This document shows, piece by piece, positions 8,420 through 28,499 of a DNA stretch of 52,484 nucleotides; the stretch's first letter is position 1; each line of letters opens with the position of its first letter. The stretch is from assembly GCA_036494095.1 (NCBI GenBank), contig DASXOR010000075.1:1-52484 (forward strand). The letters run 5' to 3'. Origin of the DNA: Gaiellales bacterium. GTDB taxonomy: Bacteria; Actinomycetota; Thermoleophilia; Gaiellales; JAICJC01. The notes beneath the pieces are model-generated. The model ran no database searches. It saw only the letters and a list, made by a program, of their open reading frames with translations, and was not told the DNA's origin. The translations under genes were made by a program, and so were the position numbers.

Positions 8420-8515
8420 CGGGGAACCTCCTGCTGAGGGGGACCATGTGAGCGCCGCGTTTCGCAACCTATCACCGCCGCAAAACGACCATACTGCCGG
8501 ATACAGGAGGACGTC

Positions 8516-11763: not shown

Positions 11764-11766
11764 GGC

Positions 11767-13530: not shown

Positions 13531-13552
13531 CGCCCGAGAAAGGACCACCCGC

Positions 13553-15133
13553 GTGATCTACGAAAGCCCTCACCCGCCCGTCGACATCCCCGATGTCCCG
13601 CTGGCCGACTTCGTGCTCGCGGGTGCCGCGGCCCGCGGCGAGCGCCCGGCGCTGGTCGACGCCGTCTCGGGCCGCACGCTCACCTACGCGGGCCTCGACG
13701 CTCTTGCGCGCGGTGTCGGAAGCGGCCTCCAGCGCCGCGGGCTCGAGCCCGGGCAGGTGGTCGGGATCCTCGCGCCCAACGTGCCCGAATACGCCGCGGC
13801 CTTCTTCGGCGTCGCGCTTGCGGGCGGCACGAACACGACCATCAACGGGCTCTACACCGAGGCCGAGATCGCCCATCAGCTGAGAAGCTCGCGGGCGCGG
13901 TTCCTCCTCACCGTCTCGGCGCTGCTCGACCGGGCGCTGCCGGCGGCTGCCTCCGCCGGCATCGAGACCGTGTTCTCGTTCGACGGCGGCGAGGACACGA
14001 TCGCGCTCGCCGACATGCTCGGGCCGCCGGGCGAGCTGCGCTCTGCGCCGATCGACCCCGCGACGGCGCTCGTCGCGCTGCCCTACTCGAGCGGCACGAC
14101 CGGCCTGCCGAAGGGGGTCATGCTCACCCACCGCAACCTGGTCGCGAACGTCGTGCAGACGCTCGCGGTGGTGCCGGGGGGTGACGAGGTCATCGCCGGG
14201 ATCCTGCCGTTCTTCCACATCTACGGCCAGACCGCGGTCATGAACTGCGCCCTGCGCGCGGGCGACACCGTGATCACCATGCCGCGCTTCGACTTCGAGG
14301 CGTTTCTGCAGATGATCGCCGAGCACCGCGTGACCCGCGCCTTCGTCGCGCCACCGATCATCGTCGCCCTTTCCAAGCACCCCGCCGTCGAGCGGTACGA
14401 CCTCTCCAGCCTGCGGATGATCAACTCGGGGGCGGCGCCGCTCGGCGACGACCTGGAGGCGGCCTGCCGGGCGCGCGTGCCCGCGCGCCTGCAGCAGGGC
14501 TACGGGTTGACCGAGGCCAGCCCGGTGACCCACATCACGCCGCTGCGAGAGGAGCACCGCCCGGGCACGATCGGTCAGCTCATCCCCAACACCGAGGCCC
14601 GCCTCGTCAAGGTCGGCACGCGCGAGGATGCCGCCTCGGGTGAGCCCGGCGAGATCTGGGTGCGCGGGCCGCAGGTGATGACCGGCTATCTCGACGATCC
14701 GGCCGCGACGGCGCGGACGCTCGCCGCCGACGGCTGGCTGCGCACCGGCGACATCGCCACGTTCCGCGCCGGGGGCTGGCGGATCGTCGACCGGCTGAAG
14801 GAGCTCATCAAGTACAAGGGCTACCAGGTCGCACCGGCGATGCTCGAGGCGCTCCTGCTCACGCACCCGGCGGTCGCCGACGCGTGCGTCATCCCGGTCG
14901 CCGACGAGGACGCGGGCGAGATCCCGAAGGCGTTCGTGGTCGCGCGCGGCGAGCTGACGGGTGACGAGCTGATGGCCTACGTCGCCGAGAGGGTCGCCCC
15001 GCACGAGCGCATCCGCGCGGTCGAGCTGATCGACGAGATCCCCAAGTCGGCGTCGGGCAAGCTGCTGCGGCGGGTGTTGGTGCAGCGTGAGCGGGCGAAG
15101 GTGGCGGCTGACCGCGCAGCCCCGCGGCCTTAG
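13553..15133 (+). CDS. AMP-dependent acyl-CoA synthetase/ligase
   Basis: AMP-binding signature LPYSSGTTGLPKGV, plus GWLRTGD and KYKGYQVAP. 526 aa. Last gene of the beta-oxidation operon. Confidence 0.9.
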   Translation: MIYESPHPPVDIPDVPLADFVLAGAAARGERPALVDAVSGRTLTYAGLDALARGVGSGLQRRGLEPGQVVGILAPNVPEYAAAFFGVALAGGTNTTINGLYTEAEIAHQLRSSRARFLLTVSALLDRALPAAASAGIETVFSFDGGEDTIALADMLGPPGELRSAPIDPATALVALPYSSGTTGLPKGVMLTHRNLVANVVQTLAVVPGGDEVIAGILPFFHIYGQTAVMNCALRAGDTVITMPRFDFEAFLQMIAEHRVTRAFVAPPIIVALSKHPAVERYDLSSLRMINSGAAPLGDDLEAACRARVPARLQQGYGLTEASPVTHITPLREEHRPGTIGQLIPNTEARLVKVGTREDAASGEPGEIWVRGPQVMTGYLDDPAATARTLAADGWLRTGDIATFRAGGWRIVDRLKELIKYKGYQVAPAMLEALLLTHPAVADACVIPVADEDAGEIPKAFVVARGELTGDELMAYVAERVAPHERIRAVELIDEIPKSASGKLLRRVLVQRERAKVAADRAAPRP

Positions 15134-16128
15134 TCGAGGGTCTGTGGCAGGCCGAAGTGGGGGAAGACATCGCTGCCGCCGAACCACGTGATGGCTGAGA
15201 GGCGGTCGCCCTCGAGCGTGAGCACGAAGACCGAGTACGCACGCGCGACGCCGCTCCCGCCATCCGGCAGGTAGCAGGCGAACGCCGGCTGGGTGTTCGC
15301 GCGCGTCTGCACCATCCGCAAAGGCGCGCCGCGGCGCTCGTTGGCGCCGCGCAGGAAGTCGCCGATCGCGGCCCGGCCCTGGTAGGCATGCGGGAGGGGC
15401 GGCATCGTCAGCCACGCGTCGGCGGTCAGGAGGGCGACGAGTCCGTCGAGGTCGCCGTTTTCGACCGTCGCCGCGAAGCGGCCGACGATGTCGCGCTCGA
15501 GCCTGGATGCCGGCAGCGGTGCTCGTTCGCGTTCGGCTGCCGGCAGCCGGGATTCGAACGCCTCCCGCGCGCGGCGCAGCAGGCTGTTGACCGCCGCCGG
15601 GCTGGTCTCGAGCATCTCGGCGACCTCGGCGGCGCGGTAGCCGAGCACATCGCGCAGTACGAGCACCGCGCGCTGCTGCGGCGGGAGGTGCTGCAGGCCG
15701 ACGACGAAGGCGAGGGCGATCGCCTCCCTGGTCTCGTAGCGCGCCTCGGGGCCGGGAGCCGCGTCGGGGATCTGCTCGAGGAGCGCGTCCGGGTAGGGCT
15801 CGAGCCAGACCGGCTCGTTCCAGCGCGTCGGCTCGGGCAGCGACGGCGTCCGCCCCTCGGCGGGCCGGCGCCTGCCCGCCCGCAGGGCATCGAGCGAGCG
15901 GTTCGTCGCGATCCGGTACAGCCACGCACGCACCGACGCGCGCCCCTCGAACCGCCTGAGGCCGCGCCACGCGGCGAGCAGCGTCTCCTGGAGCAGATCC
16001 TCGGCGTCCTGTGTCGAGCCGACGATCCGGTAGATGTGCAGCTGGAGCTCACGTTGGTACGGGCCGGTTAGCTCGCGGAACGCGTCCTCGTCGCCGGCGC
16101 GCGCACGGACGAGGGCGGGCTCGGTCAC
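15130..16128 (-). CDS. ECF-type RNA polymerase sigma factor with fused C-terminal NTF2/SnoaL-like domain (SigJ/ECF41-like)
   Basis: Region 2 (QDAEDLLQETLLAAW) and region 4 (YRAAEVAEMLETSPAAVNSLLRRAR), followed by an extension of about 140 aa. GTG 16128 with a GGAAGGA SD is preferred; ATG 16167 is an alternative. No anti-sigma gene adjacent. Confidence 0.85.
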   Translation of the reverse strand: MTEPALVRARAGDEDAFRELTGPYQRELQLHIYRIVGSTQDAEDLLQETLLAAWRGLRRFEGRASVRAWLYRIATNRSLDALRAGRRRPAEGRTPSLPEPTRWNEPVWLEPYPDALLEQIPDAAPGPEARYETREAIALAFVVGLQHLPPQQRAVLVLRDVLGYRAAEVAEMLETSPAAVNSLLRRAREAFESRLPAAERERAPLPASRLERDIVGRFAATVENGDLDGLVALLTADAWLTMPPLPHAYQGRAAIGDFLRGANERRGAPLRMVQTRANTQPAFACYLPDGGSGVARAYSVFVLTLEGDRLSAITWFGGSDVFPHFGLPQTLD

Positions 16129-16274
16129 GCCACCATCCTTCCAAAGACTCTCCTGGTTCGCCGCCATCACACGTACTGACGGTGGCGCGGCGCGAAATTC
16201 GCCGGTCAGTTTCCTTCGCGGCGGACGCCTCAACGAACGCTGCAGCCACGAGTCCAAATCGAAGGAGTGAAACC

Positions 16275-16862
16275 ATGGCAAAGATCGTGATCAGCACGAA
16301 CGCCTCGCTCGACGGAGTGGTGCAGGACCCGGACGGCGAGGAGGGCTTCAGGCTGGGTGGCTGGTTCCGCGAGTTCGGCGGAAAGGACCTCGACGACTGG
16401 GCGCGGCTCTTCACCGCAGAGTCGCTCGAAACCGACGCTCTGCTGCTGGGTCGGCGCAGCGATGCATGGTTCGCATCGCGGTGGCTCGGTCGCAGCGGCG
16501 AGTGGGCCGACCGGCTGAACAGCGTGCCCAAGTACGTCGTCTCTTCGACGCTCGTCGAGGCCGCGTGGAGCAATGCGACGGTTCTGCGGGGCGACGTGGT
16601 GGACGAGGTCTCGAGGCTCAAGCGGACGCTCGATGGGGAGATCGCCGTCTTCGGGAGCTATCAGCTCGGGCGCATGCTGATCGAGCATGACCTGATCGAC
16701 GAGGTGCGGCTGGTCGTCTTCCCGGTCGTGCTCGGGGCGGGTGAGCGCCTCTTCGGCGAGACGAGCGACCAAAAGCCCGTGCGGCTCATGGACACCGGGA
16801 CGATTGGCGCCGGCCTCATCCGGATGACCTACGAGGTCGTGCGAGAGGAGGTGGCCGCTTAA
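16275..16862 (+). CDS. Dihydrofolate-reductase-like (RibD C-terminal domain) family protein
   Basis: ATG 16275 with a GAAGGAG SD. MAKIVISTNASLDGVVQDPDG...VFPVVLGAGERLF is typical of this family. 195 aa. Confidence 0.85.
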   Translation: MAKIVISTNASLDGVVQDPDGEEGFRLGGWFREFGGKDLDDWARLFTAESLETDALLLGRRSDAWFASRWLGRSGEWADRLNSVPKYVVSSTLVEAAWSNATVLRGDVVDEVSRLKRTLDGEIAVFGSYQLGRMLIEHDLIDEVRLVVFPVVLGAGERLFGETSDQKPVRLMDTGTIGAGLIRMTYEVVREEVAA

Positions 16863-16867
16863 GGCCA

Positions 16868-16901
16868 GGTGCCTGGCACCACAATCGCGGTGCCAGGCAC
16901 C
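16868..16901. terminator. Twin palindromes GGTGCCTGGCACC / GGTGCCAGGCACC (terminator-like)
   Basis: Starts 6 nt after the stop at 16862. Two 13-mers, each self-complementary and complementary to the other, separated by 8 nt. Same architecture as the GGGGCCWGGCCCC elements at 5.36 and 32.55 kb. Confidence 0.55.
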
Positions 16902-17106
16902 CGTGTCGCGGCTAGACGACGTCCGCCGGCTCGGGCACGATGTTCCGGACCATGAACCTGCACACGACGAAGGCGAGCCAACCGAGAATCGCGGTCTGCT
17001 TGTGAGTGGCGGGTTTCTGCTGTCTCGCCGGGGAGGCCGGCTCGGGAGCGCAGGCAGACGAGCACCGCGAGGACGTGCCGGGACTCGCCGCCGCTGACGG
17101 TCGTGC

Positions 17107-17140
17107 GCCAATTGGCATCCATGGTGGATGTCAATTGGGG
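17107..17140. repeat. Palindromic CCAATTG double-box element (fifth copy of the 28.5-kb repeat family)
   Basis: gCCAATTGGCATCCAtggTGGATGTCAATTGGgg. The two heptamers are 23 bp apart start to start (17108 and 17131), the same spacing as in the array at 28541-28721. Lies about 30 nt downstream of the SARP gene stop. Confidence 0.8.
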
Positions 17141-17168
17141 GCTCGGCGCGCCCTCGCAGACACGGGGC

Positions 17169-19847
17169 TCACCACTCCACGAGGCGCCACACCCCGGGCT
17201 GGGGCTCGTCCTCGTGGCCGCCCACCTCGGCGAAGATCGCCACGGCCCGCTTGAGCTCCTCCATCGCCTCGTCGTCGCGGCCCGCACGGTGCAGGGTGTC
17301 TGCGAGGTTGTTGCGAAGCGCCGCCTCGCGGTGGCGGTCGCCCTGGGCGGCGACGAGCGCGAGGGCATCGCGGACGAGCGCTGCGGCGGGCTCGAGGTCG
17401 CCGGCCGCGAACCGCGCCCGGGCGAGGTTGTTGAGGGCGGCGATGCGGATGCTGGGATCGGCCAGCCGCTCGGAGAGGGCGAGGCTGCGCTCGAGGTGAC
17501 CCGCGCCCTCGCCCAGCAGGCCGAGGATGTTGTGCGCCCGCGCGGCGGCCTCGTCGTCGCCCTCCGCCTCGGCCAGCCGCAGCGCCTCGCGGCAGAGGTC
17601 GAGCGCCCCCGGGTCGCCGCGCCGCCAGGCCACCAGGCCACGGTCGGCCTGCACGCGGGCCGGCGGGGCGCCGAGGGCGAGCGCCTCGTGCAGGTGCCGC
17701 TCGGCCGGCTCCCACTCGCCGCGGCGCTCGTGGACGGTGGCGAGCTTGTGCTCGATCCGGCCGAGCGCGCCGGCCTCGGCGTGCGCGGCCGCGGCGTCGT
17801 AGGCCGCCAGCGCGGCCGCGTACTCGCCGCGCAGCGTGTGGACATCGCCGATCGCCTCGTGCAGCTGAGCCGGATCGGGATGGCGGAGCGCGAGCGCCGA
17901 GCGGTAGTGGGCGAGTGCCTCGGCGCCGGCCGAGAGTGCCCGGGCGCGGTCGCCGGCCGCCGCGTACGCCGCGGCCGCCTCGTCCTCGCGCCCGGCGAGC
18001 TCGAGATGGCGGGCGACCAGGGTCGGGTCGCCGTGCCGGAGCGCGAGCACGTCGGCCACGCGGCCGTTCAGGAGCCGCCGCCGGGCGAGGCCGGCGCGGT
18101 CGTCGACCGTCGCGCGCACGCGCTCGTGGCCGAAGTCGTAGGCGGCGTCGCGCTCGACGATCAGGCCGCGCGCGCACAGCTCCTCGAGCGCGCCGGCCAC
18201 CTCGTCGCCGGACCGGCCGCTGGCGGCCCGCACGGTGTCGACGTCGAACGTGCGCCCGATCACGGCGGCCGCCGAGAGCACCTGGGCGGCGGTCTCGGAC
18301 ACCGCGTCGAGCCGGCTCTCGACCGCCTCGCGCACGCCCGCCGGCGTCGTGTCGGCGGGCCGCCCGGCCGCGAGCAGCTCGGCCAGGAACAGCGGCAGCC
18401 CCTCGCTCTCCGCGTACAGCGCGTCGGCATCGCCGGGGCCGAGCCCCTGCGCGCTCGCGAGCTCGGCCACATCGGCGCGGGTCAGCCGCTCGAGCGTGAT
18501 CCGGTCGCCCATCTGGGCGAGCCGCGCGCACACGTGGCCGGGATCGGGCTCGTCGGTGCGGCGCGTGAGCAGCAGGAGCAGGCGCCGGCCCGCGAGCCGC
18601 CGGGCCAGATAGCCGAGCGCATCGAGCGAGGCCGGGTCGCACCAGTGCAGGTCGTCGACAAGGACGATGCCCGCCGCGCGGCCGTCGCCGGCGAGCGCGA
18701 TCAGCTGGCACACCGCCTCGAGGAACCGCAGCCGCGCGCCCGGATCCTCGAGGCTCGTGGGGGGTGGCGGGCCCAGCTCGGGCAGGAGCCGCGCGGCCTC
18801 GCCGACGCTGTGCTGCGGCAGCTCTGCGCCGATCGCCTCGACGGCGGCCCGCAGAAGCTGCGCCACCACCCCGTAGGCCAGGCCGCGCTCGCCTGCCGAC
18901 GGGCGGGCGGCGATCGCCGTCGCGCCGCGGTCGTGCAGGGCGGCGACCAGATCCTCGGCCAGCCGGGTCTTGCCGACGCCCGACTCGCCCTCGATCACCG
19001 CCATGCGGCCGTCGGCGGCGACCGCGCCGTGCAGGTCGGATAGCGATTGCCACGGGCCGGCGCGGCCGACCAGCGGCTGGGCGGGCGCCACGACCGCAGG
19101 CGCCACCTCGGCGACGGCCGGGCTGCGGCCCTCGTTCACGGCGTGGTAGAGCTCGGTCGTCTCGGTGAGCGGCCGCACGCCCAGCTCGCGGTCGAGCACG
19201 CGCACGCACTCGCGGTACTGGCGCATGGCGTCGCCGCGGCGGCCGCTCGTTGCGTAGCAGGAGATCAGGCGGCGGTGGGCCGGCTCGTGCAGGGGGTCGA
19301 GCGCCAACCGCTGCTCGGCCCGGGCGACGGCCTCGTCGCCGCGGCCGGCGGCTGCGAGCGCATCGACGAGCCGGTCGAGCGCCGCCGCCCGCTCGCGGCG
19401 GATGCCCTCGGTGGCCAGCTGCACCCAGTCGTCGAAGGCGGCGCTCGAGCGGACCCCGAAACCGGCGAGCAGGTCGCCGCGGTGCAGGTCGGCGGCGGCC
19501 GTGAGTGCGTCGGCGTCCGCAGCCGGGTCGGCGGCGACGCGGCGGAACTCGGCCAGGTCGAACCAGGCGCCCGCGAGCGTGAGCGCGATCGAGGTGCGGT
19601 CGACGTCGACGAACCGGCCGCCGAGGGCGGTGCGCAGGGTCGAGAGCGTCCGTCGCAGGGCCGCCCGGGACCGGTCGATGTCGAACTCCGGCCAGAGCAG
19701 GGCCGCCACCGTCTCGCGGCTCTGCCGATGTCCGGTGACCGCCAGGTGGGCGAGCATCGCCGTGGCCTTGCGCGTGTCGACCTCGAGCGGCCGGCCGTCG
19801 ATTTCGACGATCGGCGTGCCGAGAAGTGAGATCCTCAGCGCATGCAC
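17169..19847 (-). CDS. SARP/AfsR-family transcriptional regulator (wHTH-BTAD, P-loop ATPase, TPR repeats)
   Basis: 892 aa with a GTG start. N-terminal SARP DNA-binding and BTAD region (LDPLHEPAHRRLISCYATSGRRGDAMRQYRECVRVLDRELGVRP). Walker A GESGVGKT. C-terminal Ala/Leu-rich TPR-like repeats. Confidence 0.9.
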   Translation of the reverse strand: MHALRISLLGTPIVEIDGRPLEVDTRKATAMLAHLAVTGHRQSRETVAALLWPEFDIDRSRAALRRTLSTLRTALGGRFVDVDRTSIALTLAGAWFDLAEFRRVAADPAADADALTAAADLHRGDLLAGFGVRSSAAFDDWVQLATEGIRRERAAALDRLVDALAAAGRGDEAVARAEQRLALDPLHEPAHRRLISCYATSGRRGDAMRQYRECVRVLDRELGVRPLTETTELYHAVNEGRSPAVAEVAPAVVAPAQPLVGRAGPWQSLSDLHGAVAADGRMAVIEGESGVGKTRLAEDLVAALHDRGATAIAARPSAGERGLAYGVVAQLLRAAVEAIGAELPQHSVGEAARLLPELGPPPPTSLEDPGARLRFLEAVCQLIALAGDGRAAGIVLVDDLHWCDPASLDALGYLARRLAGRRLLLLLTRRTDEPDPGHVCARLAQMGDRITLERLTRADVAELASAQGLGPGDADALYAESEGLPLFLAELLAAGRPADTTPAGVREAVESRLDAVSETAAQVLSAAAVIGRTFDVDTVRAASGRSGDEVAGALEELCARGLIVERDAAYDFGHERVRATVDDRAGLARRRLLNGRVADVLALRHGDPTLVARHLELAGREDEAAAAYAAAGDRARALSAGAEALAHYRSALALRHPDPAQLHEAIGDVHTLRGEYAAALAAYDAAAAHAEAGALGRIEHKLATVHERRGEWEPAERHLHEALALGAPPARVQADRGLVAWRRGDPGALDLCREALRLAEAEGDDEAAARAHNILGLLGEGAGHLERSLALSERLADPSIRIAALNNLARARFAAGDLEPAAALVRDALALVAAQGDRHREAALRNNLADTLHRAGRDDEAMEELKRAVAIFAEVGGHEDEPQPGVWRLVEW

Positions 19848-19890
19848 GTGTCAAGCATGACACGACGTCGCAACGGAAGTCCAGCTCATC

Positions 19891-19919
19891 CACCGTCCCG
19901 TAACGTTTCCGGGACGGTG
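19891..19919 (+). promoter_or_regulatory. Perfect 10-bp stem-loop in the SARP/sensor-operon divergent region
   Basis: CACCGTCCCG-taacgtttc-CGGGACGGTG; the loop contains AACGTT. Lies about 45 nt upstream of the first sensor gene. Could be an operator or a leader RNA structure. Confidence 0.45.
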
Positions 19920-19965
19920 ACGCCGTGACAATCGCGGCATGCCTGCCACCGGGGAGAGCACGGCG

Positions 19966-21222
19966 ATGATGCGGCACGAGCGCGCGCAGACCTGGTTTGC
20001 CGGGACGATCTTCGGGGTCACACTGGCCCTCTTCGGCGCCGAGGCGGTGCTCGGCTGGCTGGCGCGCAATCTCGCGGGCGGCGCCAGCTGGTCCGGTGCC
20101 GGTCCAGCCACCGGCATCGCGCTCGCCGTGGTGCTGCTCTCGCCTCCCGCCGTCGGGCTCCTCATCGTGTCGCGGCGCGAGGGCAACCCGATCGGCTGGC
20201 TGCTGCTCGCGATCGGCCTGGCGTGGGCGCTTGCCGACTCAAGCGCCTACGCGGACTACGGCCTGCGGCTGCACCCCGGCTCACTGCCCCTCGCCGCTGT
20301 GCCCGGGGCGGTCGGCAACGCGTTCTGGGTGCCCGCCATCGGCCTCACCGGCACGCTCCTGATCCTGCTTTTCCCCGACGGGCAGCTCCCCGGTCCGGGG
20401 TGGCGCTGGGTGGCCCGCGCGAGTGTGCTCGTGATGGCCGTCGGGACGATCGCCCTGCTCCTCATGCCCGGAAAGATGACCGACGCCGGCTATCCCGGCA
20501 CGGTCAATCCGCTCGGCGTGGACGGGCTCGCGGGGGTGCTCGGCGCGGCGGGATTCGTGGTCGTGCTCCTTCCGGCGCTCATGGTCGCGTCCGCGGCCGG
20601 GATGGTCGTCCGGTACCGCCGCTCCCGGGGCGTGGAACGCGTGCAGATGCGCTGGCTGACGGCCTCGGGGGCGCTGGTCGCCCTGATCTACGGGCTGGCC
20701 TTCCTGCTCTCGGTGGCGCTCACCCCGGGCACCGAGTCGACGCGGCCGCCCTGGCTCCAGGTGCTGCAAACGCTGGCGCTCTTCAGCACCGCGCTGATCC
20801 CGATCGCGATCGGGTTCGCGGTGCTGCGCTACCGGCTGTACGACATCGACGTGATCATCCGCCGCACCCTCGTCTACGGCGTGCTCGTCGCCTGCATGGC
20901 GGCGATCTACCTCGGCGGCGTGTACACGATCGAGGGCGTCGTGCGCGGCGTGACCGGCGGCTCGAGCACGCTCGCAGTGACGGTCTCGACACTCGCCGTG
21001 GCGCTGGTCTTCCAGCCGCTGCGCCGCCGGATCCAGGCGGCCGTCGACAGGCGCTTCTACCGGTCGGCCTACGACGCCGCGCAGACGCTCGATGCCTTCA
21101 GCGCCCTGCTGCGCCGCGAGATCGACCTCGACGCGCTCACAGACGACGTCCTTGCGGTCGTCGGGCGCACGCTCCATCCGGCTCATGTCACGATCTGGCT
21201 GCGCCCGGGGGCCGACACATGA
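19966..21222 (+). CDS. Polytopic membrane sensor module without output domain, paralog 1
   Basis: ATG 19966 preceded by a GGGGAGAG SD (the track start 19939 is possible). Many hydrophobic segments. Motifs N-P-IGWL, LLFPDGQLPGPGWRW, NPLGV, LRYRLYDIDVIIRRTLVY and FQPLRRRIQAAVDRRFYRSAYDA. No kinase or other output domain. Confidence 0.85.
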   Translation: MMRHERAQTWFAGTIFGVTLALFGAEAVLGWLARNLAGGASWSGAGPATGIALAVVLLSPPAVGLLIVSRREGNPIGWLLLAIGLAWALADSSAYADYGLRLHPGSLPLAAVPGAVGNAFWVPAIGLTGTLLILLFPDGQLPGPGWRWVARASVLVMAVGTIALLLMPGKMTDAGYPGTVNPLGVDGLAGVLGAAGFVVVLLPALMVASAAGMVVRYRRSRGVERVQMRWLTASGALVALIYGLAFLLSVALTPGTESTRPPWLQVLQTLALFSTALIPIAIGFAVLRYRLYDIDVIIRRTLVYGVLVACMAAIYLGGVYTIEGVVRGVTGGSSTLAVTVSTLAVALVFQPLRRRIQAAVDRRFYRSAYDAAQTLDAFSALLRREIDLDALTDDVLAVVGRTLHPAHVTIWLRPGADT

Positions 21223-22391
21223 CCCGCGGGAAGGAGACGCAGTGCGCGGTCGCCTCGCTCGTGACGACGATCGCCCTGTTCGTGATCTCCGGCCTGATCG
21301 CCGCCACCCACCTCCGCTTCGATGCCCGGGCCACCCTTGACGCCGCCTCCTACGGGGCGCTGATGCTCGGCGTCTCGGTGATCGGGATCCTGATCGTCAG
21401 GCGCGAGCCCCGAAACGCGATCGGCTGGCTCTTCTGCGCCACACCCCTGCTCGTCGCCGTCTCGGTCGGCGGTGGCGCGATCGCCGTCTGGATGGGGCCG
21501 GAGCACGCGGACATCCCCGGAGCCGTGGTCCCGGGCTGGTTCAGCCTGTGGGCGTGGCCGATCGGCCTGGTCGGGTTCCTCGTGCTGCTGCCGCTGCTCT
21601 TCCCCGACGGCCGGCCGCCGGCCGGGCGGTGGCGGTGGCTGCTGCGGATCGACCTCGTGGGCCTCGCGCTGATCGCGGCGGCCCTCATGGCCCAGCCCGG
21701 GGAGATGTTCAACGGCGTCACGAACCCGCTTGGCGTCGGCTGGGCGGACAGCACGCCGGTCGTGGTCTTCCTGGGCGTGCTCGTCCTGATTCTGATCCCG
21801 GCGAGCCTCGTCTCGGCGGTCTTCCGCTATCGCCGCGCCGGCGCCACCGAGCGCGTGCAGCTGCGCGAGGTCGTCTTCGCCGCCGCCGCGACCTTCGCCG
21901 GGTTCATCGTGATCTCGGTGCTCGGCGGCAACTCGACGCTCTTCACCGTCGATTACGCGCTCGTCCCTGCCGCTGTGGGCCTCGCGATGCTGCGCTACCG
22001 GCTCTACGACGTCGACGTTGTCATCCGGCGCACGCTCGTCTATGCCGTGCTGGTGGCGTGCCTGGCGGGAATCTACCTCGCCGGCGTCTTCACCCTCGAG
22101 AGCGTCATCAGGCGCCTTTCGGGCAGCTCCAGCACGCTGGCCGTCACCATTTCGACCCTCGCCGTCGCGCTCGCCTTCCAGCCGCTGCGCCGTGGTATCC
22201 AGGCGGCCGTAGACCGCCGCTTCTACCGCGCCCGCTACGACGCCGCCCAGACCCTCGCCCTCTTCAGCGCGCACCTGCGCCGCGAGGTCGACCTCGAGGC
22301 CCTCACCGATGACGTGCTCGACGTGGTCCGGCAGACGCTGCACCCGACCCACTCGGCGCTGTGGCTGCGGACGGGGAGCGGAGAGCGATGA
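21219..22391 (+). CDS. Polytopic membrane sensor module without output domain, paralog 2
   Basis: ATG overlaps the upstream stop (ATGA 21219-21222). Same motif set (NAIGWL, LLFPDGRPPAGRWRW, NPLGV, LRYRLYDVDVVIRRTLVY, FQPLRRGIQAAVDRRFYRARYDA). 390 aa. Confidence 0.88.
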   Translation: MTRGKETQCAVASLVTTIALFVISGLIAATHLRFDARATLDAASYGALMLGVSVIGILIVRREPRNAIGWLFCATPLLVAVSVGGGAIAVWMGPEHADIPGAVVPGWFSLWAWPIGLVGFLVLLPLLFPDGRPPAGRWRWLLRIDLVGLALIAAALMAQPGEMFNGVTNPLGVGWADSTPVVVFLGVLVLILIPASLVSAVFRYRRAGATERVQLREVVFAAAATFAGFIVISVLGGNSTLFTVDYALVPAAVGLAMLRYRLYDVDVVIRRTLVYAVLVACLAGIYLAGVFTLESVIRRLSGSSSTLAVTISTLAVALAFQPLRRGIQAAVDRRFYRARYDAAQTLALFSAHLRREVDLEALTDDVLDVVRQTLHPTHSALWLRTGSGER

Positions 22392-23569
22392 GCGTGAGGC
22401 GGGCACCCCGGCGGTCTGTCGCTGCGCTCGCGGCCACCACGGCGCTCTTCGCGATCGCGGCGGTCGTCTATGCCACCGGCCCCGGATTCACCCCCACGGA
22501 CGTTCTCGACGCCTGCCTGTTCGGCGTGCTGATGCTCGGCATGTCGGCGATCGGGATCCTGATCGCGCGCCGCCAGCCGCGCAACCCGGTCGGGTGGTTG
22601 TTCTCGATCGCGCCGCTGTGTGTGGCCGTCGCGGTGGCCGGCGGCACGATCGACGTCTGGGCCGGGCCGAAGCACCACGATCTCCCCGGCGCCGGCGTCG
22701 CCGGCTGGGTGAGCCAATGGACGTGGCCGATCGGGATGCTCGCGTTCGCCATCTTCCTGCCGCTGCTCTTCCCCGACGGCCGCCCGCCCGCTGGGCGATG
22801 GCGGCTGCTCGTGCGATTCGACCTGGCGGCCCTCGCGTCGCTCGGTCTCGTCCTGATGACGGAGCCCGGCAACGGAAACGCGTTGGGAGTGGATGGCGCC
22901 CTCCGCACGCCTGTGGTGGCCCTCGTGGTCGTCATGATCGTCGCCGCGATGGTGGTGGGCCTCGTCTCGGCGGTCGTGCGCTACCGGCGCAGCGGCCCGA
23001 CGGAGCGCCTCCAGCTGCGCGAGTGCCTCTTCGCCGTGTGCCTCACCTTCGTCGGCTTCATCGTCATCTCCATGCTCTCCCCGCACGAGGCGCTCTACAC
23101 GCTCGACTACGCGCTCATCCCGGTGGCTGTCGGCCTGGCGATGGTCCGCTACCGGCTCTACGACGTCGACGTCGTCATTCGGCGCACGCTCGTCTACGGC
23201 GCGCTGGTCGGCATGCTCGCCGGCCTCTACCTGGCCGGAGTGGCCGGGCTCGGAGCCGGGCTGCGGGCCGCGACGGGGCTCTCGAGCTCGCTCGCGGTCA
23301 CGCTCTCGACGCTCGCCGTCATCGGCGCGTTCCAGCCGCTACGGCGGCGCACGCAGCGGGCGGTCGACCGCCGCTTCTACCGCGCCGCCTACGACGCACG
23401 CGCGACCGTCGAGGCGTTCAGCGGCGAGCTCCGTGAGCAGATCGACCTCGATGTCCTCGCCGACCGCCTGCTCGTCACCGTCCGTGAGACGGTGCGTCCG
23501 CGCACGGCGAGCGTCTGGCTCGCGCCCGTAACGATCCCGGAACGCGCGTCCGGTAAAACGGAGGCATGA
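22388..23569 (+). CDS. Polytopic membrane sensor module without output domain, paralog 3
   Basis: ATG overlaps the upstream stop (ATGA 22388-22391). Same motif set (NPVGWL, LLFPDGRPPAGRWRL, VRYRLYDVDVVIRRTLVY, FQPLRRRTQRAVDRRFYRAAYDA). 393 aa. Its stop overlaps the phosphatase start. Confidence 0.88.
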   Translation: MSVRRAPRRSVAALAATTALFAIAAVVYATGPGFTPTDVLDACLFGVLMLGMSAIGILIARRQPRNPVGWLFSIAPLCVAVAVAGGTIDVWAGPKHHDLPGAGVAGWVSQWTWPIGMLAFAIFLPLLFPDGRPPAGRWRLLVRFDLAALASLGLVLMTEPGNGNALGVDGALRTPVVALVVVMIVAAMVVGLVSAVVRYRRSGPTERLQLRECLFAVCLTFVGFIVISMLSPHEALYTLDYALIPVAVGLAMVRYRLYDVDVVIRRTLVYGALVGMLAGLYLAGVAGLGAGLRAATGLSSSLAVTLSTLAVIGAFQPLRRRTQRAVDRRFYRAAYDARATVEAFSGELREQIDLDVLADRLLVTVRETVRPRTASVWLAPVTIPERASGKTEA

Positions 23570-25179
23570 CGATGATCCACCACACGATCCGCCGGGTGAT
23601 GCTGCGCAGGCCGCAGGCGACCGAGACGCCGGCGGCCATCGAGACGCTGGCGGCGCTGCCGGCCGAGGCCGCCACGGAACCCGGCCTGCAGATCGCGCCG
23701 ACCGACCCGATCGTGCCCTACTTCCAGAGCGCGCCCGGCGCCGTCGAGCTGCGCCAGCTCGAACTCGACTCGCCCGCGCTCGAGCAGATGCGCGCCCAGG
23801 GCATCACGATGGTCGTTCCGCTCGTCACGCAGGGAGAGCTGATCGGCCTGCTCAACCTGGGGCCGCGCCTCTCCGACCAGGAGTACTCGCCCGACGACCG
23901 GCGCCTGCTCGAGAGCCTGGCCGCCCAGGTCGCCCCGGCGGTCAAGGTTGGCCAGCTCGTCCGCGAGCAGGAGGTCGAGGTGCGAGCGCGCGAGCGGCTC
24001 GAGCAGGAGCTCGAGGTCGCCCGCCTGATCCAGCAGAACTTCCTGCCCAAGCAGCTGCCCGAGCTGCCGGGGTGGCGCGTCGCGGCCTACTACCGGCCGG
24101 CGCGCACCGTGGGCGGCGACTTCTACGACTTCATCGAGCTCCCCGGCGGCCTGATCGGCCTCGTCGTGGGCGACGTGACCGACAAGGGCGTCCCCGCGGC
24201 GATGGTGATGGCGGCCACCCGAAGCGTGCTGCGGGCCGCCGCCCAGCGTCTGCTCGAGCCTGGCACCGTGCTGCAGCGGATCAACGAGACGCTGTGCTCG
24301 GAGATCCCGCCCAATATGTTCGTCACCTGCCTCTACGGCGTGCTCGACCCTGCCACCGGCCTGCTCCGCTACGCGAACGCCGGCCACAACCTGCCGATCG
24401 TACAGAGCGGCGGCGACGTGTCCGAGCTCCGCGCGACCGGCATGCCGCTCGGCCTGATGCCGGGCATGAGCTACGAGGAGAAGGAGGCGACGCTCGCCCC
24501 AGGGTCGAGCGTGCTGCTCTACAGCGACGGACTGACCGAGGCGCACGACCCCGACCGGGAGATGTTCGGCACCGGTCGCGTGCGCGAGCGCCTGGCGGCC
24601 GGGCGCGTCGCCGACGAGCTGATCTCCGATCTGCTCGCGCAGCTCGACCGCTTCACCGGGTCGGACTCCGAGCAGGAGGACGACATCACGCTCGTCGCCC
24701 TGCACCGCTCGGGCGGCGACTCCGAGATGGTGCCCGTGCTCGAGTTCTCGCTGGCGAGCGCCGAGGGCAACGAGCGCGAGGCGATGCTCCGTGTGGGCGA
24801 GGTGGCGGCTGCGAGCGGCATGGCGCCGGCCCGGCTCGAGCGCCTGAAGACCGCGGTGGCAGAGGCCACGATGAACGCGATGGAGCACGGCAACGGCTTC
24901 GACGCCGACCTTGCGGTCGACATCGCCGTGGCCCGGTCGGACGCGTCGCTGCGGGTGCGGATCACCGATCACGGCGGCGGCCGCGAGATCCCGTCCGCCG
25001 AGACGCCCGACCTGGAGGCGAAGCTCGAGGGTACCCAGTCGCCGCGCGGCTGGGGCCTGTTCCTGATCTCCAACATGGTCGACGAGGTGCATACCGAAAG
25101 TGACGGGCACCGGCACACGCTCGAGCTCGTGACGCACCTGAAGGGAGACGGTGAGACGGATGAGCCAGACCCCGCTTGA
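23566..25179 (+). CDS. SpoIIE/PP2C-type phosphatase fused to an RsbW/SpoIIAB-type anti-sigma kinase (HATPase_c) domain, with an N-terminal GAF-like fragment
   Basis: ATGA overlap with the upstream gene. PP2C motifs GGDFYDF, VGDVTDKGVPAAMVMA, YSDGLTEA and DDITLVA. C-terminal kinase N-box EATMNAMEHGN and G-boxes DHGGG and RGWGLFLI. N-terminal VVPLVTQGELIGLLNLGPRLSDQEYSPDDRRLLESLA resembles the C-terminal half of a GAF-like module. Confidence 0.88.
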   Translation: MTMIHHTIRRVMLRRPQATETPAAIETLAALPAEAATEPGLQIAPTDPIVPYFQSAPGAVELRQLELDSPALEQMRAQGITMVVPLVTQGELIGLLNLGPRLSDQEYSPDDRRLLESLAAQVAPAVKVGQLVREQEVEVRARERLEQELEVARLIQQNFLPKQLPELPGWRVAAYYRPARTVGGDFYDFIELPGGLIGLVVGDVTDKGVPAAMVMAATRSVLRAAAQRLLEPGTVLQRINETLCSEIPPNMFVTCLYGVLDPATGLLRYANAGHNLPIVQSGGDVSELRATGMPLGLMPGMSYEEKEATLAPGSSVLLYSDGLTEAHDPDREMFGTGRVRERLAAGRVADELISDLLAQLDRFTGSDSEQEDDITLVALHRSGGDSEMVPVLEFSLASAEGNEREAMLRVGEVAAASGMAPARLERLKTAVAEATMNAMEHGNGFDADLAVDIAVARSDASLRVRITDHGGGREIPSAETPDLEAKLEGTQSPRGWGLFLISNMVDEVHTESDGHRHTLELVTHLKGDGETDEPDPA

Positions 25180-25516
25180 GGCAACCCCCCGGCACACCGA
25201 TGCCGGCACGACCATCGCCCTTTCCGGCGACATCGACGGCGGCGCCCGCGACACGCTCGACGCGGCCTATGCCGCGGTCGCCGGCGACGACCCGGTGCTG
25301 CTCGACTTCACCAATGTCGGCTACATCAACTCGACCGGGATCGCCCTGATCGTGGGCGTGCTGGCCCGGGCCCGCGCCCAGGCTCGGCCTGTGAGCGCCT
25401 GCGGCCTCTCGGAGCACTACCGCGAGATCTTCGAGATCACGCGCCTGTCGGACTTCATGACCATCCTCGCGGACGGGCCGCTGCCCGCCGCCGACCGAAA
25501 CGGAGGCGCACGATGA
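25160..25516 (+). CDS. STAS-domain protein (anti-sigma-factor antagonist, RsbV/SpoIIAA-like) 1
   Basis: ATG 25160 with an AAGGGAGA SD; overlaps the upstream gene by 20 nt. LDFTNVGYINSTGIALIVG carries the conserved phosphorylatable Ser/Thr context. Confidence 0.85.
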   Translation: MSQTPLEATPRHTDAGTTIALSGDIDGGARDTLDAAYAAVAGDDPVLLDFTNVGYINSTGIALIVGVLARARAQARPVSACGLSEHYREIFEITRLSDFMTILADGPLPAADRNGGAR

Positions 25517-25869
25517 CGGACACGACCATCCGGCGGCTGGAGGTGCGGACGCCCACGCCGGGCTGCAGCGTGATCGAGCTCGCCGGGGAGGTGACCGGCG
25601 CAAGCGAAGCGGCCCTCTCGGATGCGTTCGACCGCGCCGCGACGCCGGGCACGAGGGCCGTGGTGCTCGACTTCGGCGGCCTGCAGTACATGAATTCGAG
25701 CGGCATCGGCCTGCTGGTGACGCTGCTCGTGCGGGCCAACCGCAACCGCCAGCGCATGCTCGCCTACGGCCTCTCCGACCACTACCGCCAGATCTTCGAG
25801 CTGACTCGCCTCGACGAGGCGATCGCGATCCACGAGACCGAGGACGCGGCACTCGCCGCGGCCGCCTGA
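25513..25869 (+). CDS. STAS-domain protein (anti-sigma-factor antagonist, RsbV/SpoIIAA-like) 2
   Basis: ATGA overlap (25513-25516). LDFGGLQYMNSSGIGLLVTLL carries the conserved Ser context. Paralog of the preceding gene (shared GLSEHYREIFEITRL / GLSDHYRQIFELTRL). Confidence 0.88.
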   Translation: MTDTTIRRLEVRTPTPGCSVIELAGEVTGASEAALSDAFDRAATPGTRAVVLDFGGLQYMNSSGIGLLVTLLVRANRNRQRMLAYGLSDHYRQIFELTRLDEAIAIHETEDAALAAAA

Positions 25870-25887: not shown

Positions 25888-26625
25888 ATGACCAGCCAAC
25901 CCGACAACCGGGACGCCGCCGCATGGGCGCAGCCGATCGACCGACTGCAGGTGTCGGAGGCCGCCCCGGGAGCGCGCAACATCAACGTCGCCGGCCGCAG
26001 GCAGACCTCGCCCATCCAGGGGTTCGGGCGCATGTGGCAGAAGACCTACCGCATCCCCCTGGGCGGTGTGGAGATCGCTCCGGCCGAGGTGATCGACGTC
26101 TGGAAGCGGCACTTCCCCGAGTTCTGGCCGAAGGGCAACAGCTTCTTCGCGCCGCTTGCGGGCATCGCCCCCGGCGAGGTGGCCGCGCTTGACCTGACGA
26201 TGCCGGGCGGGCTCAAGCTCTCGACCGGCGTGCTCGTGCTCTACGCCGACGACGAGTCGTTCACGCTGATGACGCCGCAGGGCCACATGTTCGCCGGGTG
26301 GATCACGTTCAGCGCGTTCGCCGACGACGGCGTCACATATGCCCAGGCGCAGGTGCTGATGCGGGCGAGCGACCCCATGTACGAGCTGGGGATGACGCTC
26401 GGCGGCCACGGCAAGGAGGACCTGCACTGGTCGCACACGCTGCGCTCGCTGGCGGCCCATCTCGGCGCCGAGGGCGAGGTGACGATCCAGAGCGTCTGCG
26501 TCGACCGCGGCCGGCAGTGGTCGAAGGCCGCGAACATCTGGCACAACGCGGGGATACGCTCCGGCATCTACATGTCCGCCGCACCCATCCGCATGATCTC
26601 CCGGCCCTTCCGGCGGGGCGGCTGA
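25888..26625 (+). CDS. Hypothetical protein (possibly DUF1990-like; unverified)
   Basis: 245-aa ORF with a GAAGGGA SD and high GC3. No catalytic motif I can name. Starts 19 nt after the STAS gene. Confidence 0.7.
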   Translation: MTSQPDNRDAAAWAQPIDRLQVSEAAPGARNINVAGRRQTSPIQGFGRMWQKTYRIPLGGVEIAPAEVIDVWKRHFPEFWPKGNSFFAPLAGIAPGEVAALDLTMPGGLKLSTGVLVLYADDESFTLMTPQGHMFAGWITFSAFADDGVTYAQAQVLMRASDPMYELGMTLGGHGKEDLHWSHTLRSLAAHLGAEGEVTIQSVCVDRGRQWSKAANIWHNAGIRSGIYMSAAPIRMISRPFRRGG

Positions 26626-26629
26626 GGGG

Positions 26630-28048
26630 TTGCCCGACGCGGTCGTCGTCGGGGCGGGCCCGAACGGCCTCGCGGCCGCGGTCGAGCTTGCGCGCGCCGG
26701 CCGCTCGGTGCTCCTGTGCGAGCGGGCAGCGGCGGTCGGCGGCGGGGCGACGACGGCCGAGCTGACGCTCCCGGGGTACCGGCACGACGTCTGCTCGGCC
26801 ATCCACCCGCTCGCGGTCGGCTCGCCGTTCCTGCGCACGCTGCCGCTCCACGAGCACGGGCTCGACCTGATCGAGCCCGGCGTGCAGGCCGCCCACCCGC
26901 TCGACGGCGGCCGCGCCGCCGTGCTGCACCGGTCGCTCGAGGAGACGGCGGCGGGCCTCGGCGGGCGCGATGGCGCGGCCTATGCCGGCCTGCTGCGCCC
27001 GTTCGCCGAGGGATGGGACGACCTCGCCCCGATCGTGCTCGGCGCTCCCAGGCCGCCGCGCCACCCGCTGCTCGCCGCCAGGTTCGCGTGGTCGGGGATG
27101 CGAGGTGCGGCCGGCCTGGCCGCGGCCACGTTCCGGTCTGACGCGGGCAGGGCGCTCCTGGCGGGGATGGGAGCGCACTCGATGCGGCCGCTCGAGCGCC
27201 CGCCGACGGCCGGCTTCGCGCTGGTCCTGCTCGCGCTCGGGCACGCCGTGGGCTGGCCTGTGGCGCGCGGCGGCTCACAGGCGATCGCCGATGCGATGGC
27301 GGCGTATCTGCGCTCGCTCGGCGGCGAGATCCAGACCGGCCACGAGGTGCGCTCGCTGGCCGACGTGCCCGATGCGAGGGCGGTGCTGCTCGATGTGACG
27401 CCGCGCCAGCTCGTCGCGATCTGCGGCGACGAACTGCCGCCCCGCTACCGGGCCGCACTCGGCCGCTACCGCTACGGACCGGGCGTGTTCAAGGTCGACT
27501 ACGCCCTCTCGGCGCCGGTGCCGTGGGCGGCCGAGGCGGCCCGCCGGGCCGGGACGGTGCACGTCGGCGGCGCGCTGGCCGAGATCGCCGCCTCCGAGGC
27601 GACGGTCGTGGGCGGCGGCCATCCCGAGCGGCCGTTCGTGCTGGTTGCCCAGCAGAGCCTGGTCGACCCCGGCCGGGCGCCGGAGGGCCACCACACGCTG
27701 TGGGCGTACTGCCATGTCCCCAACGGCTCGACCGTGGACATGACCGCGGCGATCGAGCGCCAGATCGAGCGCTTCGCGCCCGGCTTCCGCGACGTCGTGC
27801 TCGAGCGCTCGGTGCGCGGTCCGGCGGCGCTCGAGGCCGAGAACCCGAACTACGTCGGCGGCGACATCAACGGCGGCGCGGCCGACCTCCGCCAGGTGCT
27901 CGCCCGGCCCGTGCTGCGGGCCTCGCCGCACGCGACGCCCAACCCGCGCATCTTCCTGTGCTCGGCGTCGACGCCGCCCGGCGGCGGCGTCCACGGCATG
28001 TGCGGCCACCACGCCGCGCGGGCGGCCCTGCGCGGCGTGCTGCGGTAA
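26630..28048 (+). CDS. FAD-dependent oxidoreductase, phytoene-desaturase (CrtI)-related family
   Basis: TTG start 5 nt after the upstream stop. N-terminal dinucleotide-binding VVVGAGPNGLAAAVELARAG...ERAAAVGGG. C-terminal STPPGGGVHGMCG is typical of this family. 472 aa. Confidence 0.85.
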   Translation: MPDAVVVGAGPNGLAAAVELARAGRSVLLCERAAAVGGGATTAELTLPGYRHDVCSAIHPLAVGSPFLRTLPLHEHGLDLIEPGVQAAHPLDGGRAAVLHRSLEETAAGLGGRDGAAYAGLLRPFAEGWDDLAPIVLGAPRPPRHPLLAARFAWSGMRGAAGLAAATFRSDAGRALLAGMGAHSMRPLERPPTAGFALVLLALGHAVGWPVARGGSQAIADAMAAYLRSLGGEIQTGHEVRSLADVPDARAVLLDVTPRQLVAICGDELPPRYRAALGRYRYGPGVFKVDYALSAPVPWAAEAARRAGTVHVGGALAEIAASEATVVGGGHPERPFVLVAQQSLVDPGRAPEGHHTLWAYCHVPNGSTVDMTAAIERQIERFAPGFRDVVLERSVRGPAALEAENPNYVGGDINGGAADLRQVLARPVLRASPHATPNPRIFLCSASTPPGGGVHGMCGHHAARAALRGVLR

Positions 28049-28091: not shown

Positions 28092-28499
28092 GTGGGAAGC
28101 GCAGACGTGGTGCGGGAGTATCTGGCTCTGCTGCAGCGCCGCGATCCGGCGGGGCTGGACGTCGTCGTCGCCGAGGATGTGGTGGTGATCGGACCGGACG
28201 GCAGCACCGTCTTCTCCGACCGCGCGGCCTGGAAGCAGGCGATGGCTGACGAGCCGTTCACCGACGAGCGGATCGAGATCGACGATCTGGTTGCCGAAGG
28301 CGATCGGGTCGCGCTCCGTTTCCGCCTGACGGCCGTTCACAGCGGCACGGCGTTCGGAGTCGCCCCCACCGGCAAGCAGATCACCACCAGCGGCACGAAG
28401 ATCTACACCGTGAGGCACGGCCGGATCGTGCGCATCGCCGGCCACGACGACGTGCTGGGCCTGCTGCGGCAGCTCGGTCTGGCGGAGCTCCCGGTCTGA
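28092..28499 (+). CDS. SnoaL-like / ester-cyclase NTF2-fold protein
   Basis: 135 aa with a GTG start. VREYLALLQRRD...VAEGDRVALRFRLTAVHSGTAFGVAPTGKQITTSGTKIYTVRHGRIV matches the SnoaL-like polyketide-cyclase pattern. Confidence 0.8.
   Translation: MGSADVVREYLALLQRRDPAGLDVVVAEDVVVIGPDGSTVFSDRAAWKQAMADEPFTDERIEIDDLVAEGDRVALRFRLTAVHSGTAFGVAPTGKQITTSGTKIYTVRHGRIVRIAGHDDVLGLLRQLGLAELPV

Follow-up and report, generated by a model that had tools for sequence, protein, structure and literature searches.

The way in which bacteria arrive at one decision from many environmental inputs is understood in only a handful of systems, among them the stressosome and branched phosphorelays. Rv1364c of Mycobacterium tuberculosis, which has the architecture PAS-RsbU-RsbW-STAS, works in the mycobacterial SigF network. 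In the SypE-SypA and HsbR-HsbA systems, the output is not a sigma factor held by the system's own RsbW-like kinase. As outlined in the reports on these two systems, from Vibrio fischeri and Pseudomonas, respectively, a protein with an RsbW-like kinase and a PP2C phosphatase controls a STAS protein (PMC10120452, PMC6482189). Here, we describe a gene cluster in a stretch of 52,484 nucleotides (nt) with ∼72% GC from a Gaiellales bacterium (contig DASXOR010000075.1; the whole stretch is called the window), in which three membrane sensors (S1 to S3) precede a single phosphatase/kinase (PH), two STAS proteins (ST1 and ST2), a conserved 245-amino-acid (aa) protein (U245), and an FAD-dependent oxidoreductase (FADox), with a SARP/AfsR-like regulator on the opposite strand. 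We propose, with moderate confidence, that the cluster encodes a multi-input membrane-to-cytoplasm phospho-switch and that it arose from an ancestor of the transmembrane (TM)-GAF-effector type by fission inside the GAF domain. Our literature searches turned up neither an account of this cluster nor one of a naturally split GAF domain, and the only database names found for its proteins were “hypothetical protein,” “GAF domain-containing protein,” and “SpoIIE family protein phosphatase.”

The initial annotation, which was made from the sequence alone, had described three tandem paralogs joined by ATGA overlaps, a PP2C/RsbW fusion, and two STAS proteins with a conserved serine, and the open reading frames (ORFs), sequence identities, and Pfam matches all agree with it. 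The six genes it assigned to the operon stand, although the cluster proved to be larger, since SARP, U245, and the flavoenzyme are also conserved. This was established by scanning one genome per species, which yielded 78 loci onto each of which the window proteins were mapped; 39 loci, including the window, carry PH.

The GAF domain at the junction of sensors and PH

Judged by alignment, the paralogy of S1 to S3 is far beyond chance. Their pairwise identities are 43 to 58% (47, 43, and 57 to 58%), tblastn with S2 as the query recovers S1 with an E value of 2e-80 and S3 with an E value of 2e-122, and every motif quoted in the initial annotation is present. Hydropathy and AlphaFold2 (AF2) give a topology of 10 TM helices with both termini in the cytoplasm. 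In the AF2 model of S2, which has a mean predicted local distance difference test score (pLDDT) of 79, TM10 runs on as a long helix (residues 305 to 356), followed by a further helix (residues 359 to 373) and by 17 final residues with a pLDDT below 50. A Foldseek search of the Protein Data Bank (PDB) with the TM bundle of S2 returned generic 7-TM bundles only (E > 0.01, template modeling scores < 0.35). The homologs of S2 fall into >4000 protein clusters. Among the best 120, 112 are stand-alone proteins of 367 to 406 aa, seven are shorter fragments, and one has 524 aa, and no Pfam domain was found in any of these 120.

The membrane module had been likened to the input part of histidine kinases, and the searches bear this out. 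When plasmids were searched with tblastn, the module turned up within proteins of Deinococcus peraridilitoris and Streptomyces sp. YIM 121038 that are annotated as “GAF domain-containing sensor histidine kinases”; three of these were used as intact comparators (WP_015231682.1 from the former, WP_138957284.1 and WP_138957285.1 from the latter). S1 to S3 match these GAF-HisKA_3 kinases by BLASTP with E values of 1e-22 to 2e-39 over ∼300 to 360 residues. With the Deinococcus kinase, the sensors alone align over residues 70 to 407-420 (E of 5e-35 to 2e-39; S1 63 to 417 pairs with kinase residues 75 to 420 at E of 2e-39), and PH residues 82 to 145 alone align to residues 435 to 495 (E of 1e-8). When sensor and PH sequences were joined into chimeras, a single high-scoring segment pair ran across the junction, covering residues 70 to 495 of the Deinococcus kinase (E of 1e-43 to 6e-46), and the two Streptomyces kinases behaved in the same way (E of 1e-29 to 1e-32). 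At the junction, ALKLPFVAVTLESDG of the kinase, which is followed directly by DYIIAAAEG, pairs with TLHPTHSALWLRT of the chimera, which is followed by EPGLQIAPTD; therefore, the break sits in the turn between strands beta1 and beta2 of the GAF domain. The intact kinases are themselves plasmid-borne, and each adjoins a response regulator (L082:3731-8558, L081:2794-5594); in Streptomyces sp. YIM 121038, two of them stand in tandem with overlapping stop and start codons.

By these alignments, the sensors stop after GAF alpha1-beta1, and PH opens with the remainder. The conserved sensor tail is cytoplasmic and ∼70 aa long, and in S2 it consists of the linker helix, GAF alpha1 (residues 359 to 373), and beta1; AF2 renders it as two helices and a low-confidence end. 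The tail of S3 is extended by VTIPER..G.TE, which recurs in the majority of the PH-adjacent sensors in the Gaiellales-like loci that were inspected. The sensors had been called output-less, a term that does not fit tails carrying the linker and the first two elements of a domain whose remainder lies in PH. On the PH side, Pfam reports a partial GAF match at residues 68 to 126, which the first reading of the sequence had overlooked, and neither a PAS nor a STAS domain. PH alone covers only positions 78 to 132 of the PF01590 profile (34 bits). Chimeras in which a sensor tail is joined to PH residue 38 onward cover positions 1 to 132 (41 to 43 bits), starting from the tail helix DLEALTDD, and the match to positions 1 to 132 persists when the whole C terminus of S3 and the whole N terminus of PH are kept. 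A weak colinear match to PrsK (TIGR02916) likewise gains strength with the chimera of S2 and PH, from 24 to 34 bits. The AF2 model of PH (overall pLDDT of 84) lacks the N-terminal helix and strand of the GAF fold: its N-terminal domain contains only helix 49-55, strand 60-61, helix 70-77, the hairpin of strands 82-88 and 91-98, and a long helix (109-159) leading into the PP2C domain. A complete GAF domain, from alpha1-beta1 through alpha5, is not present in the single chain of PH.

Conservation was profiled in an alignment of 193 sensor copies taken from the fetched loci. Variability marks the outer loops (information content of 0.8 to 2.2 bits) and most of TM1 to TM7 (1.5 to 1.8 bits), in contrast to the strong conservation (2.5 to 3.6 bits) of the four cytoplasmic loops, TM9, TM10, and the tail. 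The conserved motifs of the cytoplasmic loops are R.P.N.iGW, FPdGrlps.RWR, R.RR....eRqQlKW, and RyRLYDIDv.InRT. Diversified inputs acting on a shared cytoplasmic partner would be expected to show such a profile. The best 120 homologs of PH are likewise uniform, with lengths of 488 to 618 aa save for three shorter fragments, and the N-terminal motif M.T....RRV.RR is present in 9/9 proteins inspected and is the consensus of an alignment of 63 sequences.

These profiles also bear on an alternative in which the sensors signal to PH through their cytoplasmic loops and the basic PH N terminus, with the tail being vestigial or dimerizing and the GAF remnant serving as a structural linker. Within the sensors, conservation peaks in the loops (FPDGR..RWR and RYRLYDIDxxIRRT), R9, R10, and R14 of PH are invariant or almost so despite the predicted disorder around them, and AF2 assigns a pLDDT of ∼85 to the PH remnant even without the missing elements. 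However, the tail, including the WL(R) of beta1, is as conserved as the loops, at ∼3 bits. All 193 sensor copies stop a few to ∼20 residues past the conserved ...P.h..lWLR motif, which would be unexpected for a vestige, and relative to the intact homologs, the break falls exactly at the beta1-beta2 turn. We consider signaling through the loops unlikely and favor tails that would complete the GAF domain of PH.

STAS proteins, U245, and the candidate output of the proposed switch

The catalytic motifs of both enzymatic domains of PH are intact, and both the phosphatase and the kinase are predicted to be active. Among 63 PH homologs, the PP2C motifs GGDFYD, GDVTDKG, SDG, and EDDIT are invariant, as are E433, N437, H441, and G442 of the kinase N box, D468 and G470 of DHGG, and R494-G497 (RGWG). 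The closest PDB match of PH by Foldseek is 3ke6_A, the RsbU and RsbW domains of Rv1364c (E of 9e-22, 27% identity over ∼375 columns). Both STAS proteins match PF01740/PF13466 and form two distinct conserved orthogroups, each with its own version of the serine that is predicted from sequence to be a SpoIIAA-type phosphosite. Wherever the motif region was recovered, ST1 has (Y/F)INS(T/S)G, with one INSKG, and ST2 has YMNS(S/G)G; the window versions are YINSTG and YMNSSG. The partner-switching parts and the likeness to Rv1364c that had been recognized initially are, in sum, confirmed by the Pfam domains, the conserved serines, and the best structural match.

The target of these parts appears to differ from the usual one. 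U245 and FADox follow ST2 wherever the downstream flank is visible, with one exception (L028). Neither Pfam (E up to 10) nor NCBIfam has a match to U245, its one sequence match in the PDB is at chance level (E of 0.98), and an exhaustive search returned 1130 representative homologs at E ≤ 1e-3; on this evidence, U245 is a large unannotated domain family. In 46 of its best 150 relatives, an N-terminal STAS domain is fused to U245, and in 46/46 of these proteins, the fused STAS is closer to ST2 than to ST1. Several relatives of 850 to 900 aa consist of Pyr_redox_2, Pyr_redox_dim, STAS, and U245, and one consists of STAS, U245, and Pyr_redox_2; U245 also occurs alone and as a tandem duplicate. 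These fusions favor an action of ST2 on U245 and a joint role of U245 with flavoprotein oxidoreductases, and they point to a non-sigma output. FADox itself matches NAD_binding_8 and Amino_oxidase in Pfam and, below the cutoffs, the CrtO-like and crtI_fam models of NCBIfam. The initial annotation had left the output target open because it saw no sigma gene: that no sigma gene lies in the operon holds, and the fusions now link ST2 to U245 and flavoprotein oxidoreductases.

A classical partner switch would instead have the PH kinase sequester a remote sigma factor of the SigB/SigF type, with ST1 and ST2 as anti-anti-sigma factors and U245 and FADox as coregulated cargo. The PP2C and kinase folds of PH are closest to those of Rv1364c, PH has weak NCBIfam matches to SpoIIAB/RsbW, and only 52 kb of the genome is visible. 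No cognate sigma target was found in the operon or in the related loci, however, and no group-3 sigma gene was seen in the 39 loci (±8 kb), yet SARP, U245, and FADox are conserved. The sole sigma gene of the window is of the ECF type with a SnoaL-like extension, lies outside the conserved cluster on the same strand as the SARP gene and downstream of it, opposite to the operon, and is conserved only in the nearest relative, L007 (91% identity). As it is not conserved with the cluster, we rejected it as the target of PH. The STAS-U245 fusions, too, argue for a protein target other than a sigma factor. A remote sigma factor therefore seems to us rather doubtful, and U245 together with the flavoenzyme is the preferred candidate output.

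Sensor arrays and gene layout across genomes

The PH loci come from two phyla, Actinomycetota (Gaiellales, Thermoleophilia, Rubrobacteraceae, Solirubrobacterales, Nitriliruptorales, Nocardioides, Kribbella, and Marmoricola) and Chloroflexota (Limnocylindria, Chloroflexia, and Anaerolineae). The recurring order is SARP on the minus strand and then n sensors, PH, ST1, ST2, U245, and FADox. A SARP homolog is found in 30/39 PH-bearing loci, and in most of the other 9, the fetched sequence stops within the array of sensors or where the contig does. The number of sensors per single PH ranges from 1 (L028) to at least 10 (L029, L064, and L071), so that the design of many sensors for one enzyme, as first proposed for the window, is conserved across the 39 loci. 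In Rubrobacteraceae, the sensors come after FADox or flank PH on both sides (L040, L050, and L065/L077).

Arrays differ even between very close genomes. The nearest relative, L007, in which SARP and PH are 92 to 98% identical to those of the window, has two sensors instead of three. Its second sensor (L007:9245-10441) shares 80 to 93% identity with S2 across the bulk of the N-terminal part and 92 to 98% with S3 across approximately the last 170 alignment columns; the tail of S2 itself is S1-like. This mosaic is what recombination of S2 with S3 within the conserved C-terminal region would yield, and it suggests that arrays grow and shrink by exchange in the conserved part. From the sequences compared, such recombination explains the copy number difference between these genomes, and it would reshuffle variable sensing modules on a constant tail.

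Sensor genes also occur away from PH. Solitary sensors with a truncated GAF tail lie among unrelated genes in L003, L008, L009, L010, L016, L022, and L033 (∼8000 to 9250 in each), with no truncated-GAF effector adjoining them, and the metagenome-assembled genome CAWDDB01 contains both a full cluster (L050) and a solitary sensor (L033). These copies far from any PH, a TM fold without a solved relative, and the arrays located after FADox in some loci would suit membrane proteins that are mere neighbors of PH rather than its inputs, for example, SARP-regulated transporters, enzymes, or anchors. Such a role is hard to reconcile with the colinear homology to the sensor and GAF parts of histidine kinases, the translational coupling to PH in the window (ATGA overlap), the co-occurrence of sensors and PH across two phyla, and the complementary split of one domain over two proteins, and we regard it as quite improbable next to the preferred reading of the sensors as PH inputs.

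That a single sensor-phosphatase gene was broken by a frameshift or assembly error, leaving decaying tandem copies, can be dismissed, even though S3 and PH overlap in different frames that a single −1 shift would fuse, because the same split recurs in 39 independent loci with varying spacings and frames (and in-frame stops where the frames agree), the homologs are of uniform length, as noted above, the GC content at third codon positions (GC3) is 0.91 to 0.94 in the two sensor ORFs scored, as coding sequence would give, and an independent Joint Genome Institute (JGI) contig has identical genes, called in the same way. In all 39 loci, the last sensor and PH occupy separate ORFs, which differ in frame or, if they share one, have a stop between them, and a fused sensor-phosphatase gene was found in 0/39 PH loci and in 0/120 best PH homologs; the stops in the window are thus not the errors that the initial annotation had considered. 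A search with the tail-PH chimera for natural fused relatives returned only PH-type proteins with the same N-terminal start. Programmed −1 frameshifting from S3 into PH was also rejected, given the differing frames, gaps of 40 to 700 nt, in-frame stops, and arrays that do not adjoin PH.

The features of the window are listed in Table 1. ATGA overlaps join S1/S2, S2/S3, S3/PH, and ST1/ST2, and the end of PH is overlapped by 20 to 29 nt by the start of ST1. S1 has an alternative ATG at 19939, and a Shine-Dalgarno-like run, GGGGAGAG, is located immediately 5′ of 19966.

Table 1. Coordinates of the cluster, of the PH segments, and of flanking features in the window
Feature	Position	Strand	Description
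ECF-type sigma factor	15130-16281	-	SnoaL-like C-terminal extension; Sigma70_r2/r4_2 + SnoaL_2; NCBIfam PRK08241/TIGR02960
SARP/AfsR-like regulator	17169-19847	-	BTAD + AAA_16/NB-ARC-type ATPase + TPR; divergent from sensor operon
SARP-S1 intergenic region	19848-19965		Blocks conserved in close relatives
Intergenic palindrome	19848-19863		GTGTCAAGCATGACAC
Intergenic inverted repeat	19893-19917		CCGTCCCG-N9-CGGGACGG
S1 sensor paralog	19966-21222	+	418 aa; cytoplasmic tail, residues 349-418 (21010-21219)
S2 sensor paralog	21219-22391	+	390 aa; 10 TM helices; tail, residues 320-390 (22176-22388)
S3 sensor paralog	22388-23569	+	393 aa; tail, residues 315-393 (23330-23566)
PH	23566-25179	+	537 aa; SpoIIE/PP2C + RsbW-type kinase
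PH residues 1-37	23566-23676	+	Predicted disordered; conserved basic motif; AF2 pLDDT ∼30
PH residues 38-135	23677-23970	+	GAF remainder beta2-alpha5, then long helix
PH residues 194-381	24145-24708	+	SpoIIE/PP2C, PF07228, E 2.8e-55
PH residues 402-521	24769-25128	+	RsbW-type HATPase_c_2, PF13581, E 4.2e-20
ST1 STAS protein	25151/25160-25516	+	121 aa from GTG 25151; 118 aa from ATG 25160; JGI call, 118 aa
ST2 STAS protein	25513-25869	+	118 aa; Pfam STAS, E 9e-15
U245	25888-26625	+	Conserved 245-aa protein; candidate output partner of ST2
FADox	26630-28048	+	472 aa; FAD-dependent oxidoreductase, CrtI/phytoene-desaturase/amine-oxidase superfamily; conserved last cluster gene

The SARP gene product has the composition of the large SARP/AfsR-like regulators, a BTAD domain (E of 4e-25), an NB-ARC-type ATPase (AAA_16, E of 1.5e-19), and TPR repeats (TPR_12, E of 1.6e-16), along with a weak NCBIfam match to AfsR; no Pfam match to an N-terminal winged helix was found at E < 0.01. 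In an alignment of five related loci, the conserved blocks between SARP and S1 include CGCAACG in addition to the palindrome and the inverted repeat, and these elements are candidate promoter or operator sequences. No RNA family of Rfam was detected in the window, and a promoter/terminator scan was uninformative in DNA of 72% GC. The ∼0.9 kb between the sigma ORF and the SARP stop codon (16282 to 17168) contains no ORF with coding-like GC3 and no Rfam match, and since the true sigma start is probably further downstream, this gap would be larger still.

Farther out, a run of fatty acid beta-oxidation genes (thiolase, 3-hydroxyacyl-coenzyme A [CoA] dehydrogenase/enoyl-CoA hydratase, acyl-CoA dehydrogenase, and AMP-binding ligase) occupies positions 8516 to 15133 and is common to the closest relatives only. 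A SnoaL-like protein (28092 to 28499) directly follows FADox in this lineage only, and a soluble GAF_2-HisKA_3-HATPase_c kinase is encoded ∼10 kb downstream (37685 to 39160, minus strand). An anti-phage defense system was considered and rejected, as PADLOC gave no relevant match and only a weak dinucleotide-binding-motif match for FADox.

Proposed mechanism and comparison with known systems

The mechanism that we infer from the gene structure, its conservation, the position of the fission, the intact catalytic motifs, and the gene fusions would run from the membrane to a flavoenzyme. The tail of a sensor would complete the GAF domain of PH in trans, tethering PH to that sensor, and the state of the sensor would pass through the GAF domain and the long helix to the balance between the PH phosphatase and kinase. 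All sensor tails are alike, so the paralogs of an array (three in the window and 1 to at least 10 in other loci, along with scattered solitary copies) could compete for or share one PH. PH would then set the phosphorylation of ST1 and ST2 on their conserved serines, and ST2 would act on U245 and, through or with U245, on the neighboring CrtI-like flavoenzyme instead of a sigma factor. The divergent SARP may control the operon or be a further target. More tentatively, the arrangement may be a natural plug-and-socket, in which sensors bind PH by GAF fragment complementation and compete for it and the output is a new STAS-controlled effector made up of U245 and the flavoenzyme. If so, sensors could be added, lost, or recombined without changing the output.

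Several observations weigh against this mechanism. The gain in the Pfam GAF match on chimeras is modest, at 7 to 9 bits, and Pfam GAF models match even the intact comparator kinases in the C-terminal part only. Hence, the partial Pfam match alone is no proof of truncation, and the colinear alignment is the main evidence for the split. Many of the STAS-U245 fusion proteins have another residue in place of the phosphosite serine; phospho-control is therefore not a universal trait of U245 and would be confined to the unfused form. L028 lacks both U245 and FADox. The RsbW-type domain may yet have a binding partner in a sigma factor whose gene lies elsewhere. Many sensor genes stand alone, lacking a PH within 8 kb, and because of these copies, the sensor family may have PH-independent roles.

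If the proposed phospho-switch holds, the cluster is a widespread, uncharacterized, and genetically compact alternative to the known ways of merging inputs, a variable membrane sensor array wired to one PP2C/kinase, for which the sequences propose a concrete physical coupling, the split GAF domain. It would give a first functional context to two large unannotated families, the ∼400-aa sensors (>4000 clusters) and U245 (>1100 representative clusters), and extend partner switching to a probable enzymatic (flavoprotein) output. The GAF split also suggests natural design rules for swappable sensor docking that may be usable in synthetic signaling.

By its parts, which are assigned from sequence, the cluster is a partner-switching-type system. 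It shares with Rsb/SpoIIA modules a SpoIIE-family PP2C phosphatase, a GHKL serine kinase of the RsbW/SpoIIAB type, and single-domain STAS proteins with a phosphorylatable serine. In contrast to RsbU/V/W and SpoIIE/SpoIIAA/SpoIIAB, its conserved cluster has no sigma gene, phosphatase and kinase form one polypeptide, the STAS proteins belong to two orthogroups, the input is a membrane array, and the output is likely U245 with a flavoenzyme. No sigma target was found locally, so the cluster is not an Rsb/SpoIIA module in the strict sense. PH and Rv1364c (3ke6) both have a PP2C domain followed by an RsbW-type kinase in one chain, but PH has neither a PAS domain nor a fused STAS domain; its N terminus is a GAF domain lacking alpha1-beta1, and its STAS partners are encoded by two separate genes.

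The TM-GAF-HisKA_3-HATPase_c kinases share the homologous 10-TM module, the linker (FQPLR..Q.AV.R..Y), and the GAF domain and are colinear with a sensor followed by the PH N terminus. They are single polypeptides that end in a transmitter, whereas in the cluster, the cut in the chain lies between GAF beta1 and beta2, the part before it exists in several copies, and the part after it carries PP2C and a serine kinase. S1 to S3 have no Pfam domain and so neither the HisKA_3 nor the HATPase_c domain, both of which the comparator kinases have.

In the Bacillus stressosome (RsbRA-D, RsbS, and RsbT), as here, several paralogous sensors converge on one PP2C-dependent switch. The stressosome sensors are cytoplasmic, assemble via their own STAS domains, and release RsbT, whereas the present sensors are membrane proteins without STAS domains, ST1 and ST2 each consist of a single STAS domain, and neither an RsbT-like protein nor a separate RsbT-like kinase gene was detected in the cluster. 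The resemblance to the stressosome that was drawn initially is retained as a functional analogy and does not extend to the components. In SypE-SypA and HsbR-HsbA, the domain order is reversed and the input is a receiver domain; those systems are not known to have a membrane array, a GAF domain, or U245. The cluster appears to work most like the non-sigma switches of the SypE-SypA type and would integrate its inputs by a stressosome-like logic; it is a member of neither group.

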